From: Comamonadaceae bacterium | Lineage (GTDB): Bacteria; Pseudomonadota; Gammaproteobacteria; Burkholderiales; Burkholderiaceae_C | Assembly (NCBI GenBank): GCA_947476285.1 | Contig: CANJPU010000009.1 | Location: 3,630 to 67,629 of the forward strand | Reading direction: 5' to 3' | DNA: 64,000 nucleotides | Part shown: piece by piece, positions 4,273-62,564 of the stretch | Position numbering within the stretch: the stretch's first letter is position 1 | Layout of the letters: each line of letters starts with the position of its first letter | Notes under the pieces: model-generated | Databases searched by the model: none | What the model was told of the DNA's origin: nothing | The model's input: only the letters and a program-made list of their open reading frames with translations | Position numbers and translations under genes: made by a program

Positions 4273-7140
4273 TCAAGCCGCGCTCACCTGCACCGCGCAG
4301 TATTTGAACTCGGGAATCTTGCCGAATGGATCGAGTGCGGAGTTGGTCAGCAGATTGGCTGCCGCCTCCGCATACGCGAAGGGGATGAACACCGTGCCTT
4401 GCGGTGTGCCGTCGTCGCGGCGGACAAAGAGCTCAACTTCACCACGACGCGAGCGCACGCGCAGGCGCTGGCCAGCCACCAGGCCCAGTGCCTGGATGTC
4501 GTGACCACACATGGACGCACTGGCCACCGGCTCGATCGCATCGAGCACGGCGCTGCGGCGCGTCATGCTGCCGGTGTGCCAATGTTCGAGCTGGCGGCCG
4601 GTGATGAGCACGAAGGGAAATTGCGCGTCGGGCTTTTCGTTTGCAGGCAGCAGTTGTGTTGGCACCAGATGAAGGCGCCCGTCCGATGTGGGGAAATGGT
4701 CAATGAACACGATGGGCTGGCCCGGATCGTCCGCGCTCAGGCACGGGTAGGTGACGCTGCCCTCGCGCTCAAGCCGCTCCCAGCTTATGCCGGCAATCGC
4801 CGCGTGCATCGCCTGGCGCATTTCTTCATAGACCTGCGCCACGCCCTCTTCAGGCCCACCATAGTGCCAGTGCAGACCCAGGCCTTTGGCCATTTGTTGA
4901 ATCAGCCACAAATCGGGCTTGGCGTCGCCCGGCGGATCGATCGCCTTGCGGCCTAGCTGCACCATGCGATCGGTGTTGGTCACCGTACCGGTTTTCTCGG
5001 GCCAGGCGGTCGCCGGTAGCACCACATCAGCCAGCCAGGCGGTCTCGGTCATAAAGATGTCCTGCACCACGAGATGGTCTAGCGAGGCCAGAGCATGGCG
5101 CGCATGGTTGAGGTCAGGGTCACTCATGGCTGGGTTCTCGCCCATGATGTACATGCCGCGCACTTTGTCAGGGTCATCCTCGTCGGCCAAGGCCTTGCGC
5201 ATGATCTCGACCACTGTGTAGCCAGGCCGCGCGTCGAGTTTTGTGCCCCAGAATGTTTCGAACCAGGCGTGGGCCTCGCCGTTGTCCACACGCTGGTAGT
5301 TGGGGAACATCATGGGAATGAGCCCGGCGTCGCTTGCGCCTTGCACATTGTTCTGGCCGCGCAAGGGGTGCAGGCCACTGCCAGGCTTGCCGATCTGACC
5401 AGCCACCGCGCACAACGCGATCAGGCAGCGCGCGTTGTCAGTGCCGTGCACGTGCTGGCTGATGCCCATGCCCCACAGGATCATGGCGGATTTGGCTTTG
5501 GCAAAAGCCCGTGCAACCTCGCGAATGGTGGCTGCCGGGATGCCACAGATATCTTGCATGGCTTCGGGGCTGAAGGCCAGCACGCCTTGGCGCAAAGCCT
5601 CGAAGTTGCTGGTGCGCTGCGCAATGAACCGGGTATCGGCCAAGCCCTCTTCGATGATGGTGTGGATCATCGCGTTGAGCAGGGCCACATCGGTGTCGGC
5701 CTTGAACTGCAGGGTGCGCCAGGCGTGGCGCCCGATGTCGGTGATGCGCGGGTCGGCCAGCACGATCTTCGTGCCCTGGCGGGCGGCATTCTTCATCCAG
5801 GTGGCGGCTACCGGATGGTTGCTGGTGGGGTTGGAGCCGATGACGATGATCAACTCGGCATGTGCCACATCACTGACCTGGTTGCTCACCGATCCCGAGC
5901 CCACGCCTTCGAGCAGCGCGGCCACGCTGGAGGCATGACACAGCCGGGTGCAATGGTCCACGTTGTTGCTGCCAAAGCCAGTGCGCACCAGCTTCTGAAA
6001 CAAGTACGCCTCTTCGTTGGTGCCCTTGGCCGAGCCGAAGCCGGCCAGCGATTTGGGGCCATAGGCATCGCGCAGAAACATGAGCTTGCCGCTGGCCAGT
6101 TGCAGCGCCTCGTCCCAGTCGGCCTCGCGAAATACCTCGGCCCAGCGCGTGGGGTCGCGCATCACGTTCGCATCCTTGTCCACACCAGCCTTGCGGATCA
6201 AGGGCCGCGTCAGGCGATGCGGATGGTGCGCGTAGTCAAAGCCGAAGCGGCCCTTGACGCACAGCCGGCTGTGATTGGCCGGGCCGTCGCGGCCATCGAC
6301 GCCGACGATTTTTTCGTCTCGCACCTTGTAGGTGATCTGGCAGCCGACTCCGCAGAACGGGCAGACCGAGTCAACTTCGCGGCCCACTGCCTGCGATCCG
6401 ATCAGCGTCTTTGGCATGAGCGCGCCAGTGGGACAGGCCTGCACGCATTCGCCGCAGGCCACGCAGGTGCTAGCGGCCATGGGGTCGGCCAGGTCAAACA
6501 CGATCTGGCTGTGCGCTGCGCGATGGGCGTAGCCGATCACGTCGTTGGCCTGCACTTCGCGGCAAGCACGCACGCAGCGGGTGCACTGGATGCAGGCGTC
6601 AAGATTGACGGCCATGGCGGGGTGGGAGAGGTCTGCGCTGGGTTGTTCGCGGCGCAGCGCTTTGAGTTGCGCGCGCGGTGTGACGCCCATGCGCTGCGCC
6701 CAGGCGCTGAGCTCGCCGTGCTGGCCGGAGGGGGTGGATCCCGGATCAAGTCCGGGATGACAGTCAGTTGTCATTGCGGCCTCCGAGCCGCCATCCATGC
6801 GACGCGCGCCATCGTTCCACTTAAAGCCGTCATCGGGCATGTCCGCCAGCAGCATCTCCAGCACCATCTTCTGGCTCTTGCGCGCTCGTTCACTGCTCGC
6901 CTGCACTTGCATGCCAGGCGTAACAGCGCGGCAGCAACTGGGCGCGAGCACGCGTTCGCCGGCTACCTCAACCACGCAGGCGCGGCAGTTGCCGTCGGGG
7001 CGCATGCCCGCCTTGTAGCAAAGCCGGGGGATCTCAACGCCCACACGATCAGCAGCCTGCAAAACAGTCTCGCCCTCAAGCGCCTGCACACGCTGGCCGT
7101 CCAGCGTGAACTCAACAAGGGGTAGATCAGCTGATTTCAT
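4273..7140 (-). CDS. fdhA: Formate dehydrogenase alpha subunit (Mo/W-bisPGD, Cys ligand), NAD-linked type
   Basis: 2Fe-2S (PRLC..GNCRAC..PSCC), two 4Fe-4S motifs, CPFCGVGC, RLCHASS, LRGQNNVQG, PFAYAEAAANLLT; start MKSADL overlaps beta stop. Confidence 0.93.
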   Translation of the reverse strand: MKSADLPLVEFTLDGQRVQALEGETVLQAADRVGVEIPRLCYKAGMRPDGNCRACVVEVAGERVLAPSCCRAVTPGMQVQASSERARKSQKMVLEMLLADMPDDGFKWNDGARRMDGGSEAAMTTDCHPGLDPGSTPSGQHGELSAWAQRMGVTPRAQLKALRREQPSADLSHPAMAVNLDACIQCTRCVRACREVQANDVIGYAHRAAHSQIVFDLADPMAASTCVACGECVQACPTGALMPKTLIGSQAVGREVDSVCPFCGVGCQITYKVRDEKIVGVDGRDGPANHSRLCVKGRFGFDYAHHPHRLTRPLIRKAGVDKDANVMRDPTRWAEVFREADWDEALQLASGKLMFLRDAYGPKSLAGFGSAKGTNEEAYLFQKLVRTGFGSNNVDHCTRLCHASSVAALLEGVGSGSVSNQVSDVAHAELIIVIGSNPTSNHPVAATWMKNAARQGTKIVLADPRITDIGRHAWRTLQFKADTDVALLNAMIHTIIEEGLADTRFIAQRTSNFEALRQGVLAFSPEAMQDICGIPAATIREVARAFAKAKSAMILWGMGISQHVHGTDNARCLIALCAVAGQIGKPGSGLHPLRGQNNVQGASDAGLIPMMFPNYQRVDNGEAHAWFETFWGTKLDARPGYTVVEIMRKALADEDDPDKVRGMYIMGENPAMSDPDLNHARHALASLDHLVVQDIFMTETAWLADVVLPATAWPEKTGTVTNTDRMVQLGRKAIDPPGDAKPDLWLIQQMAKGLGLHWHYGGPEEGVAQVYEEMRQAMHAAIAGISWERLEREGSVTYPCLSADDPGQPIVFIDHFPTSDGRLHLVPTQLLPANEKPDAQFPFVLITGRQLEHWHTGSMTRRSAVLDAIEPVASASMCGHDIQALGLVAGQRLRVRSRRGEVELFVRRDDGTPQGTVFIPFAYAEAAANLLTNSALDPFGKIPEFKYCAVQVSAA
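6735..6803. repeat. Intragenic REP doublet (TGTC-tagged) in fdhA
   Basis: TGGATCCCGGATCAAGTCCGGGATGACA-GTCAGT-TGTCATTGCGGCCTCCGAGCCGCCATCCATGCGAC; both halves resemble the REPs at 59629-59720. Confidence 0.88.
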
Positions 7141-56183: not shown

Positions 56184-57983
56184 ATGCCAATCACCCTGGA
56201 CGAACTCAATCAAGCAAGCACGGAGCAGGCCGCCGCCATGCTGGACGGTTTGTACGAACACTCCCCATGGGTGGCGCAGGCGGCCTTGCCCCTGCGCCCT
56301 TTCCATTCGCTCACGCACCTCAAGCACAGCATGGCGCGCATCGTGGCCGATGCCGGCAAGCAAGCCCAGCTCACCCTGATACGTGCCCACCCCGAGCTGG
56401 CCGGCAAGGCCATGGTCAGCAAAACGCTCACAGCCGAATCGACCCATGAGCAAGGCAAGGCTGGCCTGACCGATTGCACGCCGCAGGAGTTCACCAGGAT
56501 ACAAAAACTCAACACCGACTACAAAGCCAAGTTCGGTTTTCCTTTCATTCTGGCGGTGCTCGGCGCGCGCGGCGCAGGCCTGTCTAAGCAAGAGATCATC
56601 GACACCTTCGCGCGGCGACTGGAGAACTCACCCGACGAAGAATTGGCCCAGTCGCTGCGCAACATCCACCGCATCGTGGAGATGCGCCTGAATGTCAAAT
56701 TCGGCGTGCAACCCAGCCTGGGCGACCTGGTATGGGATTGGCATGAAAGCCTGGCGCAATTCAGCGACCCAGGCTTTGCCGAGCAAGGGCAGCTCACCGT
56801 CACCTACCTCACGCAGGCCCATCGCGCCGCTGCCGCGCAGATTGCAGACAACATGAAACGCTGCGGCTTCGATGAAGTGACGGTCGACGCCGTGGGCAAT
56901 GTGGTGGGCCGCTACCGAGCCACGCAGCCTGGTGCCAAGACCCTGATGACAGGCTCGCACTACGACACGGTGCGCAACGCCGGCAAGTACGACGGCAGAC
57001 TTGGCATCTTCACACCCATGGCTTGCGTTCGCGAACTCTCGCGCCAGGGCCGGCGCCTGCCCTTCGCCCTGGAAGTAGTCGGCTTCGCTGAAGAAGAAGG
57101 CCAACGCTACAAGGCATCCTTCCTCGGCTCGGGCGCACTGATTGGTGGGTTCAAGCCTGAGTGGCTTGATCTGCGTGACGATGAAGGCATCAGCATGCGC
57201 GAGGCCATGCAGGCCGCCGGGCATGCGGGCACGATGGAGGCGATCGCCGCCCTGCGCCGCAAGCAGCAAGACTATCTGGGCTTTGTCGAGGTGCATATCG
57301 AGCAAGGCCCAGTGCTGGCGCAAGCCGATCTGCCACTAGGCATCGTCACCTCCATCAACGGCAGCCTGCGCTATCAATGCGAAGTGCTGGGCACCGCCAG
57401 CCATGCCGGCACCACACCCATGAACCAGCGGCGCGATGCCGTGCTGGCTGTGGCCGAGCTGGCGCTCTACATGGAACAGCGCGCCACCCGCGATGCCGAT
57501 TCAGTTGCCACCATGGGCATGCTGCAAGTGCCGGGCGGCTCGGTCAATGTGGTGCCAGGGCGCTGCCAGTTCAGCCTGGACATGCGCGCACCCACCGATG
57601 CGCAGCGCGACGCACTGGCCGCTGACGTGCTGGCTCAACTGCACAGCCTGTGCGAAGCACGCGGCCTGCGTTGCAGCGCACTGGAAGTGCTGCGCGCGGC
57701 GGCGGCTCCCAGCGATGCACAGTGGCAGCAGCGCTGGGAAAAGGCCGTGCAGGCACTGGGCGTGCCGGTGTTTCGCCTGCCCAGCGGCGCCGGCCACGAC
57801 GCCATGAAGCTGCATGAGCTCATGCCCCAGGCCATGCTGTTTGTGCGCGGCCAGAACAACGGCATCAGCCACAACCCCCTGGAGAGCACCACCAGCGACG
57901 ACATGGAACTCGCCGTGCAGTCCTTCATGGCGCTGCTGGACCAGCTCTCGCAGGAGTCGGCAAGCGTGGGTGCACCCACATGA
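56184..57983 (+). CDS. uraD: OHCU decarboxylase (UraD) fused to allantoate amidohydrolase
   Basis: N-term EHSPW, HPELAG, KFGFPFI; C-term GSHYDTV, DG, EEEG, HIEQG, GAGHDA. Confidence 0.92.
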   Translation: MPITLDELNQASTEQAAAMLDGLYEHSPWVAQAALPLRPFHSLTHLKHSMARIVADAGKQAQLTLIRAHPELAGKAMVSKTLTAESTHEQGKAGLTDCTPQEFTRIQKLNTDYKAKFGFPFILAVLGARGAGLSKQEIIDTFARRLENSPDEELAQSLRNIHRIVEMRLNVKFGVQPSLGDLVWDWHESLAQFSDPGFAEQGQLTVTYLTQAHRAAAAQIADNMKRCGFDEVTVDAVGNVVGRYRATQPGAKTLMTGSHYDTVRNAGKYDGRLGIFTPMACVRELSRQGRRLPFALEVVGFAEEEGQRYKASFLGSGALIGGFKPEWLDLRDDEGISMREAMQAAGHAGTMEAIAALRRKQQDYLGFVEVHIEQGPVLAQADLPLGIVTSINGSLRYQCEVLGTASHAGTTPMNQRRDAVLAVAELALYMEQRATRDADSVATMGMLQVPGGSVNVVPGRCQFSLDMRAPTDAQRDALAADVLAQLHSLCEARGLRCSALEVLRAAAAPSDAQWQQRWEKAVQALGVPVFRLPSGAGHDAMKLHELMPQAMLFVRGQNNGISHNPLESTTSDDMELAVQSFMALLDQLSQESASVGAPT

Positions 57984-59209
57984 CAGAACACGACAAACTC
58001 GACGCCTGGGTCGATGCCCACTTCGATGAAGAAGTGCGCTTTCTTCAAGAGCTGGTGCGCGTGCCCACCGACACGCCGCCAGGCAACAACGCACCCCACG
58101 CGCAGCGCACCACGCAGTTGTTGCAGGCCTTCGGCTTTGAGGCCGAGCAATACCCTGTGCCGCAAGACGAAGTGCGCGCCTATGGCCTGCAGTCCCTCAC
58201 CAACCTCATCGTGCGTCGGCCTTACGGCCCGGGCGGGCGCACCATCGCGCTCAATGCCCACGGCGATGTCGTGCCACCGGGCGAGGGCTGGGCCCATGAT
58301 CCTTATGGCGCTCAGATTGAAGACGGCAAAATGTATGGCCGCGCCACGGCAGTGAGCAAGGGCGATTTCGCCAGCTTCACCTTCGCGGTGCGTGCGCTGG
58401 AATCATTGCAGGCGCAACTACATGGCAGCGTGGAATTGCACTTCACCTACGACGAAGAATTTGGCGGCGAGATGGGGCCGGGCTGGCTGCTGCGCAACAA
58501 GCTCACTCGGCCCGACCTGATGATTGCCGCGGGTTTCAGTTACGAAGTGGTCACCGCGCACAACGGCTGCCTGCAAATGGAAGTCACCGTGCACGGCAAG
58601 ATGGCCCATGCGGCCATACCGCACACCGGTGTGGATGCACTGCAGGGTGCGGTGCACATCCTTAATGCCTTGTATGCGCAAAACCAGCTCTACCGTGCGG
58701 TCAGCTCCAAGGTGCCGGGCATCACCCACCCCTACCTGAACGTGGGACGCATCGAAGGCGGCACCAACACCAATGTGGTCCCAGGCAAGGTGGCGTTCAA
58801 ATTCGATCGGCGCATGATCCCCGAGGAGGACCCCGTCGCTGTCGAGGCCAGCATACGGCAGGTGATTCAAGACAGCACCGGCGCCTGCCCTGGCATCACA
58901 GTGGACATCAAACGCCTGCTGCTGGCCCACTCGATGCAGCCCCTGCCCGGCAATCAGCCACTGGTCGATGCGATCCAAAAGCACGGCGCCGCGATTTTCG
59001 GCCAGCCCATTCCTGCGATGGGCACACCGCTCTACACCGACGTGCGCCTGTACGCCCAGGCAGGCATCCCCGGCGTGATCTACGGCGCAGGCCCGCGCAC
59101 GGTGCTGGAATCGCATGCCAAGCAGGCCGATGAGCGCCTGGATCTGCAAGACCTCAAAGGCGCCACCAAGGTCATCGCCCGCACGCTGCTCGATCTGCTG
59201 CGCTCTTGA
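57980..59209 (+). CDS. M20/ArgE-DapE-fold protein with non-canonical metal site
   Basis: NAHGDVVP, YGRATAVSKGD, YDEEFGG, GGTNTNVVP, DRR..PEE; ATGA overlap with upstream gene. Confidence 0.85.
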   Translation: MTEHDKLDAWVDAHFDEEVRFLQELVRVPTDTPPGNNAPHAQRTTQLLQAFGFEAEQYPVPQDEVRAYGLQSLTNLIVRRPYGPGGRTIALNAHGDVVPPGEGWAHDPYGAQIEDGKMYGRATAVSKGDFASFTFAVRALESLQAQLHGSVELHFTYDEEFGGEMGPGWLLRNKLTRPDLMIAAGFSYEVVTAHNGCLQMEVTVHGKMAHAAIPHTGVDALQGAVHILNALYAQNQLYRAVSSKVPGITHPYLNVGRIEGGTNTNVVPGKVAFKFDRRMIPEEDPVAVEASIRQVIQDSTGACPGITVDIKRLLLAHSMQPLPGNQPLVDAIQKHGAAIFGQPIPAMGTPLYTDVRLYAQAGIPGVIYGAGPRTVLESHAKQADERLDLQDLKGATKVIARTLLDLLRS

Positions 59210-59320
59210 GCGCGCACCGGGTTTGATCCTGTCAGCCCAAATTGGAAATGCCCCTCGCACCAGCCATCCGGTCTGCACCGGCATTGGCAATGCTGCGGTT
59301 GATTGCCTGCTTGGTTTGCG

Positions 59321-59552
59321 CGTCGCGTCAGGCGATGCCCGGCAGGCGCTCACTGTGGCGGTCTGCGCTTCGCTTCGACTTCGCTGGGATTTGCGGCCTG
59401 AGGTCGGCGGCGCATAACTCACTTCGCGCCCTTCGGCCGCTACGTTCAAACAGATGCGCCGAGCATGAATTGAAGCGCTTCGCGCCCAACCTCAGGCCGC
59501 AAATCCCAGCCGCCCCAGAATGAGCGCCTGCCGGGCATCGCCTGCCGCGACG
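59321..59552 (+). repeat. Nested-hairpin element A (MITE/REPIN-like or structured RNA)
   Basis: 32-bp terminal IR with one mismatch, 22-bp perfect inner IR (59383-59404 / 59489-59510), central GGCGCAT/ATGCGCC stem. Confidence 0.85.
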
Positions 59553-59628
59553 GGTAAGGGGTGGGCGTGCGTTGCGGTGAAGACATGTCGAGCGCACAGA
59601 TTCCACAATACGCAGCCCAGACGCCTTC

Positions 59629-59718
59629 TGTCATTGCGGGCTTGACCCGCAATCCATGCGACCCCGGCCAACACGTTTGTTCAAATGAGCTGGATCCCGG
59701 CTCGAGTCCGGGATGACA
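59629..59718. repeat. Intergenic REP doublet (TGTC-tagged)
   Basis: TGTCATTGCGGGCTTGACCCGCAATCCAT ... TGGATCCCGGCTCGAGTCCGGGATGACA. Confidence 0.88.
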
Positions 59719-59773
59719 GTGGTGGGTGTAGTGAGCACTCCGCCTGAAACCTTCGCGCGCCTACCAAGTTGTC

Positions 59774-60013
59774 TGTCGCGGCAGGCGCAAGGCGGCCAGG
59801 GCTCATTCTGGGGCGGCTGTGATTTGTGCTCTGGGGTCGGATCGCGCGTAGCGCGACACGTTGTCATGCTCGGTGCCCTTGTTTGAGCGGAGCGGCCGTA
59901 GGGCGCGCAGCGAGTTGGGCACCGCCGACCCCAGAGCGCAAATCACAGCGGAGTCGAAGCGCAGCGTAGACCGCCACAGCATGAGCCCTGGCCGCCTTGC
60001 GCCTGACGCGACA
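59774..60013 (-). repeat. Nested-hairpin element B, inverted diverged homolog of A
   Basis: 33-bp terminal IR with one mismatch, ~25-bp inner IR, central GGTGCCC/GGGCACC stem; spacers shared with A. Confidence 0.85.
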
Positions 60014-60269
60014 CGCGACACATACCGCATGAAGCGAAGCGCGACACATGAAAGCAGCGTACGAGGCCGGCGCCTAATTGCAGCCCAGTCAAGATAGCCT
60101 GCAACGGCTGCCCAGGGAACATGTCAAATTCAGGCCGCCACCCCGGGTTTGATCCACCCCAGGGTGGACAATATGACGCAGGACAAAGCGTCCGCTTTTT
60201 TTCTAGCCACCCATCGATCCACGCATGATCCAGCGTGCGAAGATTCGCTACCGTTCTCAGGAGACCGCA

Positions 60270-62564
<2,295 letters not shown>

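Follow-up and report, generated by a model that had tools for sequence, protein, structure and literature searches.

The spacer between an M20 family peptidase gene and a malic enzyme gene in a Comamonadaceae bacterium holds two homologous elements in inverted orientation, A and B, whose stems differ in sequence but stay paired. The original prediction, made from the sequence alone, described them as a structured ncRNA or an ssDNA-mobilised element selected on its fold. The locus thus raises the question of what the elements are, whether the fold itself is selected, and on which strand and in which nucleic acid it acts. The whole stretch of DNA that was analysed, 64 kb in length, is referred to as the window.

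Two convergent modules downstream of an M20 peptidase gene

The features of the locus, in window positions, are as follows.

57980-59209, + strand: M20 family peptidase gene, upstream flank (Pfam PF01546, PF07687)
59210-60269: intergenic region between the M20 peptidase gene and maeB, holding A and B
59316-59557, + strand: module A, type 1, subtype with a paired mid stem (nhmmer, family-HMM positions 2-243, E 5e-59)
59361-59383, + strand: side-branch of A, read directly from the sequence as GTC-TGC-GC-TTC-GC-TTC-GAC and followed by a fourth CTTCG pentamer, a tandem CTNCG array
59772-60016, − strand: module B, type 1 (nhmmer, HMM positions 3-242, E 7.5e-58)
59952-59979, − strand: conserved motif and side-branch of B (exact motif match)
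60175-60202, + strand: terminator-like hairpin and T run between B and maeB (consensus scan, 1 site vs 1.3 expected by chance)
60270-62564, + strand: MaeB-type malic enzyme gene with malic and PTA_PTB domains, downstream flank (Pfam PF00390, PF03949, PF01515)

A and the reverse complement of B were homologous over the full length of the modules (about 242 nt), which confirms the end-to-end alignment first proposed, with identity in 188 of 250 columns (75%). B is inverted relative to A, and the two are convergent, tail to tail. Each module folds into one long branched hairpin, with RNA-parameter energies of −164.7 kcal/mol for A and −168.9 kcal/mol for B; the corresponding z scores were −12.3 and −13.9, and none of 200 shuffles folded equally well. 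Thirteen pairs, of which the outer arm has 9 and the inner arm 4, are altered on both sides between A and B yet still pair; the compensated changes originally counted, 8 in the outer arm, 4 in the inner arm and 3 in the core stem, come close to this. The T/C mismatch noted near the ends is indeed present in A and B, but most members of the family described below have a G-C pair there. The 64 kb contain the motif CTGTGGCGGTCT.CGCT.CGCTTCGACT at exactly two places (0 expected), and CCGCCCCAGAATGAGC also has exactly 2 occurrences in the window.

If the hairpin at 60175-60202 is the terminator of the M20 gene, A and B may lie within its 3' UTR. We also considered whether B arose from A by a recent local inverted duplication. 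A is equally near to a Ramlibacter copy (LC086, 78%) and to B (76%), and the spacer halves are unrelated apart from small REPs; therefore, this origin was rejected.

The modules belong to a multi-copy intergenic repeat family of Burkholderiales

Searching the whole window against Rfam 15 gave no match at the gathering score. With E values up to 10, the sole match was Metazoa_SRP at 15 bits vs a gathering score of 70, a chance match.

In a collection with one genome per species, a 26-base motif from the modules found 12 loci, in Ramlibacter, Caenimonas, Methylibium and other Burkholderiales MAGs, many of them 150 bp or less from a contig end. A looser 21-base motif found at least 117 genome loci and at least 120 metagenome loci, and a profile HMM (nhmmer) found 181 genome modules and 162 metagenome modules in the matches listed. 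In total, more than 240 loci carry the module, in Ramlibacter, Variovorax, Rubrivivax, Piscinibacter, Methylibium and other Burkholderiales, with at least 12 loci in one Piscinibacter MAG and at least 3 on one closed MAG chromosome; the viral and plasmid collections searched held no copies. In freshwater metagenomes that bear the window, Logan unitigs end at 59334 and 60004, and word depth rises from about 5 to 60-100 across the modules. The 21-base motif also matched L033, L092 and L097, contigs binned as Vicinamibacterales, Verrucomicrobiota and Armatimonadia, in which the family HMM found no module; these matches are chance hits, fragments or mis-binned contigs.

Among 50 blocks, 46 contain no coding ORF and are intergenic. 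The flanking gene pairs of these blocks are co-directional in 34 cases, convergent in 12 and divergent in 4. The modules avoid divergent promoters, and most copies are found downstream of genes or within operons.

A and B are therefore members of a family of intergenic, non-coding palindromic repeats that has many copies in Burkholderiales, namely in Comamonadaceae and the Rubrivivax/Piscinibacter/Methylibium group. A literature search returned no description of the module family, which is apparently undescribed. A match to a known repeat family had been named as the outcome that would speak against the original reading; the high-copy dispersed repeat found here answers to that outcome, though it apparently has no published description.

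Covariation and architecture of the module and the unit

To describe the fold, we used an alignment of 60 full-length copies with a median pairwise identity of 74%. RNAalifold predicted 51 stem pairs, of which 38 show double compensatory changes. A pair counter applied to the same 60 copies found 95.2% of cells paired, with double changes in 324 cells, and none of 500 shuffles matched any of the covariation measures; slid controls were 37-52% paired. The selection on fold first suggested by two copies is thus seen as massive covariation across 60. The covariation reflects fold selection, and the elements form a palindromic repeat family of high copy number instead of a discrete ncRNA gene. That the family is a dispersed palindromic repeat selected on its fold is, in our judgement, highly likely.

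Four parts make up the module of about 240 nt: the outer stem, a side hairpin of small size, the mid stem and a core with three tips. GC content in the family is about 70%, and pairing extends along the whole length. Conservation across copies is found in the asymmetric side-branch of the 5' arm and in short motifs that surround the three-tip core; the asymmetric branches are kept across genera. In each GNA of the side-branch, G and A are invariant and N is variable among the 60 copies.

Two variations of the mid stem were observed. In most copies, the 3' arm contains an 11-nt stretch, TGCGCTCCTCG, that runs inverse to the sequence needed for pairing with the 5' arm (CTGCGGTGCTC; alignment columns 77-98 and 232-242). 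A symmetric internal loop results, and on the GNA strand each of its sides contains CGCAG. Full pairing of this stretch is seen in the window copies (59383-59398 and 59495-59510) and in several others, mostly Ramlibacter (L016, L072, L074, L078 and L089). Further, an extra branch of about 80 bp with two hairpins, GCCCTGGCGC..GCGCCAGGGC and CACAGAACAGTCC-GAAG-GGACTGTTCTGTG, was found in L027:7472-7555, L073:231-314, L110:919-994, L112:4384-4464 and L102:3536-3612. In four loci it replaces the mid-stem loop on the 5' arm, and in L102 it does so on the 3' arm; its GNA-type loops are on the strand opposite to the rest.

Modules are nearly always arranged in convergent pairs. In the matches listed, convergent and divergent pairs numbered 56 vs 0 in genomes and 38 vs 2 in metagenomes. 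Among 97 convergent pairs listed, 73 joined a type-1 to a type-2 module, 12 were of type 1 only and 12 of type 2 only. The usual unit is a convergent pair of about 525 bp in which a small spacer hairpin separates a type-1 module from a diverged type-2 module; measured between its outer ends, the pair is 510-541 bp long in about 30 of 48 cases. The window unit, at 702 bp, is the rarer pair of two type-1 modules. The ends of the two types read as follows.

Type-1 module ends: CGCGGCAGGCGG...CCGCCTGCCGCG
Type-2 module ends: GCAAAGGCG...CGCCTTTGC

The unit ends form imperfect inverted repeats, GCGGCA(AA)GGCG...CGCCTTTGCCGC. These terminal repeats, about 12 bp long, are present only within the homology between type-1 and type-2 modules. 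A GTAG/CGTC end tag is absent; the modules end in GCGCG(T/G)CGCGGCAGG and CGCCTTTGCCGC, and CGTC occurs in only some copies, inside a stem.

Strand asymmetry and GNA motifs

We compared the two strands of the module, taking as sense the strand with GGCGGTCTNCGCTNCGCTNCGACT, which is the strand folded in the original prediction. In the main stems, the sense strand has A.C mismatches in 80 cells at 28 positions vs G.U in 17 cells at 9 positions, counts that come from related, non-independent copies; therefore, the complement is the strand that keeps wobble pairs. Helix 61-65/243-247 runs contrary to this general asymmetry, with U.G kept on the motif strand. The complement folds more stably in 56 of 60 copies, by 8.9 kcal/mol on average. 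In type 2, the complement is the stabler strand in 20 of 24 copies, with the same CGNAG-strand bias. Wobble pairs and lower folding energy thus favour the complement over the strand originally folded.

The complement is rich in CGNAG pentamers, with 513 vs 91 on the sense strand in the 60 copies, or about 8 per module. A and B each carry 8 on the GNA strand, which is the − strand for A and the + strand for B, and none on the other. The heptamer GCGNAGC is still more biased, with 168 on the complement vs 10 on the sense strand; its N is C in 95 cases, A in 58, T in 12 and G in 3. All core tips on the complement read C(GNA)G, and DNA-parameter folds of the GNA strand of A and B have triloop tips, with z scores of −14.6 and −14.0. 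The core loops had been taken for UNCG tetraloops, a reading that leaves one closing pair in CCCTTCGGCC and CCCTACGGCC, whereas the triloop register gives 5 pairs. These loops pair better as CC(TTC)GG and CC(TAC)GG triloops, which on the other strand read C(GAA)G and C(GTA)G.

The segments described as single-stranded linkers are conserved, as had been stated, but they are largely tandem (CTNCG)x4, whose complement, (CGNAG)x4, itself folds into the side hairpin. The main linker is the complement of CAG-CGNAG-T-CGNAG-CGNAG-CGNAG. On the GNA strand the side-branch reads GTC[GNA]GC[GNA]GC[GNA]GAC, or GTC[GAA]GC[GAA]GC[GCA]GAC in A, and is predicted to fold with a GNA/GNA internal loop on which a GNA triloop mini-hairpin is stacked; written as a DNA oligo it is d(GTCGAAGCGAAGCGCAGAC). 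The facing GNA/GNA loop presumably resembles the (GGA)2 sheared-G.A motif. In some copies (e.g. L085 and L106), the GNA/GNA internal loop is swapped for Watson-Crick pairs, GTCGGCGC-TTT-GCGCCGAC (GTCGGCGC-AAA-GCGCCGAC on the GNA strand), which gives independent support for the side-branch register.

GNA triloops are found in RNA too, and G-U or G-T wobbles do not distinguish RNA from ssDNA. As DNA, the GCGNAGC mini-hairpin far exceeds its RNA form in stability, and it is a mark of natural ssDNA signals such as the G4 origin, ssiA and the N4 promoters (PMC13037366). The GNA strand is favoured as ssDNA because GCGNAGC is an extraordinarily stable mini-hairpin as DNA and a weaker one as RNA. The orientation of the unit relative to the gene reading into it showed no bias (23 vs 30, p 0.41). 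The type-1 GNA strand tends to lie on the G-rich strand by GC skew, a weak trend that is not significant (p 0.08). Taken together, the evidence from strand, motif and orientation favours a folded ssDNA of the GNA-rich strand over RNA. Of the two readings offered originally, the ssDNA-mobilised element fits better and the structured ncRNA is less favoured. We regard the chances as evenly balanced that the active form is in fact ssDNA of this strand.

Small REPs in the spacer

The spacer between A and B contains a doublet of small REPs, and a further inverted pair of the same kind lies elsewhere in the window.

59628-59658, + strand: small TGTC-tagged REP in the A-B spacer, TGTC-AT-TGCGGG-CTTGA-CCCGCA-AT-CCA
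59689-59719, − strand: second small TGTC-tagged REP, inverted relative to the first and forming a REP doublet with it
6735-6761, − strand, and 6768-6797, + strand: further inverted pair of small REPs

CGTC/TGTC-tagged REPs have a tag, an 8-9-bp stem starting with AT, a 4-5-nt loop and a CCA tail, and form head-to-head dimers (Di Nocera et al., PMC3733652). The small REPs of the window, which have the form TGTC-AT, 6-bp stem, 5-nt loop and AT-CCA in inverted doublets, fit this class in every feature. They are separate from the large module. The small-REP family was also found in the Burkholderiales loci L006, L012, L055, L064, L089, L107, L154, L188 and L198, in some loci less than 100 bp from a large module.

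Insertion into intergenic DNA

The spacer between the M20 gene and maeB is about 1,060 bp in the window vs about 105-250 bp in L161, L174, L176 and L184. The element is in none of 80 orthologous M20 loci, of which the best (Ramlibacter sp. WS9) has 85% amino-acid identity. Two ABC ATPase genes that are separated by about 10 bp in Variovorax sp. MHTC-1 have a 537-bp unit between them in Variovorax sp. LT2P21. Comparisons of this kind show that the family expanded by insertion into intergenic DNA. The short spacers of L161, L174, L176 and L184 share, upstream of maeB and some 60-110 bp past the stop codon of the M20 gene, a conserved sequence of about 60 nt that includes the hairpin TAGGTAGTCTCCACGGGGACTACC; this sequence is absent from the window.

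No direct repeats indicative of target-site duplication were found around 24 canonical units, and orthologous spacers and flanks were too diverged to align, so that precise empty-site junctions were not definable. A linked Y1 transposase or RT had been proposed as a check of the original prediction. Neither a transposase nor a reverse transcriptase linked to the copies was found in the flanks searched: ORF clustering of the 8-kb flanks gave only common paralogs (ABC ATPases, SDR, acyl-CoA dehydrogenases and Bug receptors), and about 3 Mb of flanks had no match to the Y1 motif NPV(R/K)AGL by regular expression, nor any by tblastn to an approximate query sequence of E. coli RayT. The gene between two copies in L082 was considered as a linked enzyme and rejected; it encodes an ordinary PLP enzyme. 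Across more than 240 loci, neither a unit containing a long coding insert nor a parent insertion sequence with matching ends was found.

Two copies have themselves been interrupted. In L080 (2860-4367), the single example of its kind, an IS110-family element (DEDD_Tnp_IS110 and Transposase_20) that has subterminal inverted repeats of its own, TATGGACGCCTCCC, lies inside a module, with its insertion point exactly in the AACT^C linker, which is conserved. In L064 (3839-5098), an IS3-family transposase (rve, HTH_21) lies inside a module at family-HMM position of about 150. Both elements are insertions into copies, with their own ends. Insertion of IS110-family elements into REP-like targets is known behaviour.

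Proposed mechanism and alternative explanations

We consider it somewhat probable that the modules are a non-autonomous, REPIN/BIME-like repeat family that is selected on its fold and acts as folded ssDNA of the GNA-rich strand. In this mechanism, the active form would be ssDNA of the CGNAG-bearing strand, with hairpin tips forming C(GNA)G triloops, often the full GCGNAGC DNA mini-hairpin, and with G-T wobbles tolerated. A trans-acting enzyme would recognise the structure and the GNA motifs, so that fold selection would keep the stems; the leading candidate is an HUH/Y1 (RAYT/TIRYT-like) transposase that may be encoded elsewhere in the genome. The GNA mini-hairpins would be the feature by which the folded ssDNA intermediate is recognised. 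The model expects the DNA GNA strand of the side-branch to have a Tm well above that of its complement and of the RNA version.

The same fold could instead belong to a structured RNA, transcribed alone or in neighbouring mRNAs and serving as a 3'-end stabiliser, a terminator, a REP-like processing site or an undescribed ncRNA class. Very stable folding and strong covariation are in keeping with this, the strand-specific wobble bias suits any single-stranded form, a terminator-like site follows B, and most copies, being downstream of a gene or in operons, are probably co-transcribed. However, an RNA would be expected neither to have one module per orientation in every unit nor to occur equally in both orientations relative to the upstream gene, and the loops are GNA triloops of the DNA mini-hairpin type, not GNRA or UNCG tetraloops; Rfam gave no match, and the modules have no conserved promoter or terminator of their own. 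The search of sequencing runs found no RNA run holding the window element, and the search with a Variovorax copy listed none identified as RNA. We therefore consider a structured RNA unlikely. We see still less prospect for an IS-derived MITE moved as dsDNA by a DDE transposase through terminal inverted repeats, with complementarity as a by-product of palindromic origin and gene conversion within the palindrome. The imperfect inverted repeats at the unit ends and the size and intergenic multi-copy habit would fit, and GC-to-CG flips are possible through templated repair within a palindrome, but the asymmetries in mismatches (80 vs 17) and in pentamers (513 vs 91) are not what a process blind to strand predicts. 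The conservation of asymmetric branches across genera, the lack of target-site duplications and the lack of a parent insertion sequence in more than 240 loci also stand against a MITE.

Equally improbable, in our view, is a DNA site exapted by the host, in which a cruciform or a fold of the lagging-strand template binds a nucleoid protein or gyrase, as BIMEs do, or acts in G4-type or ssiA-like priming or restart, and spreads only occasionally. Its motifs are deeply conserved across several genera with both subtypes kept, natural GNA mini-hairpins mark ssDNA priming sites and promoters (PMC13037366), the type-1 GNA strand shows its weak trend towards the G-rich strand, and a dedicated transposase is missing, as for CGTC REPs. 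Yet we found no conserved genomic positions, copy number varies greatly and copies are broken by insertion sequences; a protein partner is not known, and the replication-strand trend is not significant.

Relation to known repeat systems

Like the REPs and REPINs associated with RAYTs (Bertels and Rainey 2011, PMC3116915) and like BIMEs, the modules are extragenic, multi-copy, GC-rich palindromes with a strong preference for convergent doublets with a short spacer, often heterodimers of two subtypes. They share with them persistence across related genera, absence from the plasmid and viral collections searched, and use as a target by the IS110 family. Unlike REPs of 20-40 nt and REPINs of about 100 nt, they form 240-nt modules and 525-bp units, about ten times larger, are branched with a side hairpin and a three-tip core, and have no GTAG/CGTC tag and no flanked RAYT in about 3 Mb of flanks. 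The repeats of TIRtrons, associated with TIRYTs (Di Nocera et al. 2013, PMC3733652), are likewise longer, partly self-complementary, moderately abundant and dimeric, and their mobilisation by IS200-like tyrosine transposases has been proposed (PMC3733652). The modules differ from them in having no tyrosine transposase gene beside any copy and no sequence kinship (no GGGGWSAS motif). Overall, the modules behave most like REP/REPIN or TIRtron-type repeats, yet depart from them in size, in tag and, as far as the flanks are concerned, in a flanked RAYT.

Other systems share fewer features with the modules. Bacterial MITEs (Correia/NEMIS, ERIC, RUP, Nezha) are also non-coding, intergenic elements of 100-600 bp with long hairpins and presence/absence between relatives, but they are usually AT-rich, with 15-30-bp terminal inverted repeats, target-site duplications and a recognisable parent IS, whereas the module family is about 70% GC and paired over its full length, with no target-site duplication or parent IS found. 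The d(GCGNAGC) ssDNA signals of the phage G4 origin, ssiA and the N4 promoters (PMC13037366) have, like the modules, C(GNA)G triloops with invariant G and A, on one strand and several per element; each of them is one functional site in a phage or plasmid replicon, in contrast to a dispersed chromosomal repeat. Integron attC sites also use a specific folded DNA strand, as the modules are inferred to do, and keep their structure by compensatory stem changes with little sequence conservation, but they are 57-141 bp long and occur in cassette arrays next to intI, with R/L boxes and extrahelical bases, a context that the module family does not have.

On a more tentative note, the family may represent a new class of ssDNA element, with a recognition code of C(GNA)G triloops and facing GNA/GNA internal loops in a conserved branched fold of about 240 nt, kept over the long term as a type 1/type 2 unit by an ssDNA-acting enzyme or a host replication/repair function, that is, a 'giant REPIN' with its own structural grammar.

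For the organisms that carry it, the family enlarges intergenic regions and splits operons, and it breaks short-read assemblies of soil and freshwater Burkholderiales. With covarying stems and DNA-specific mini-hairpin motifs on one strand, it is a natural system for the recognition and propagation of large folded ssDNA. With it, the REPIN/RAYT picture would come to include far larger elements, and the family would offer a defined substrate for finding the responsible enzyme.
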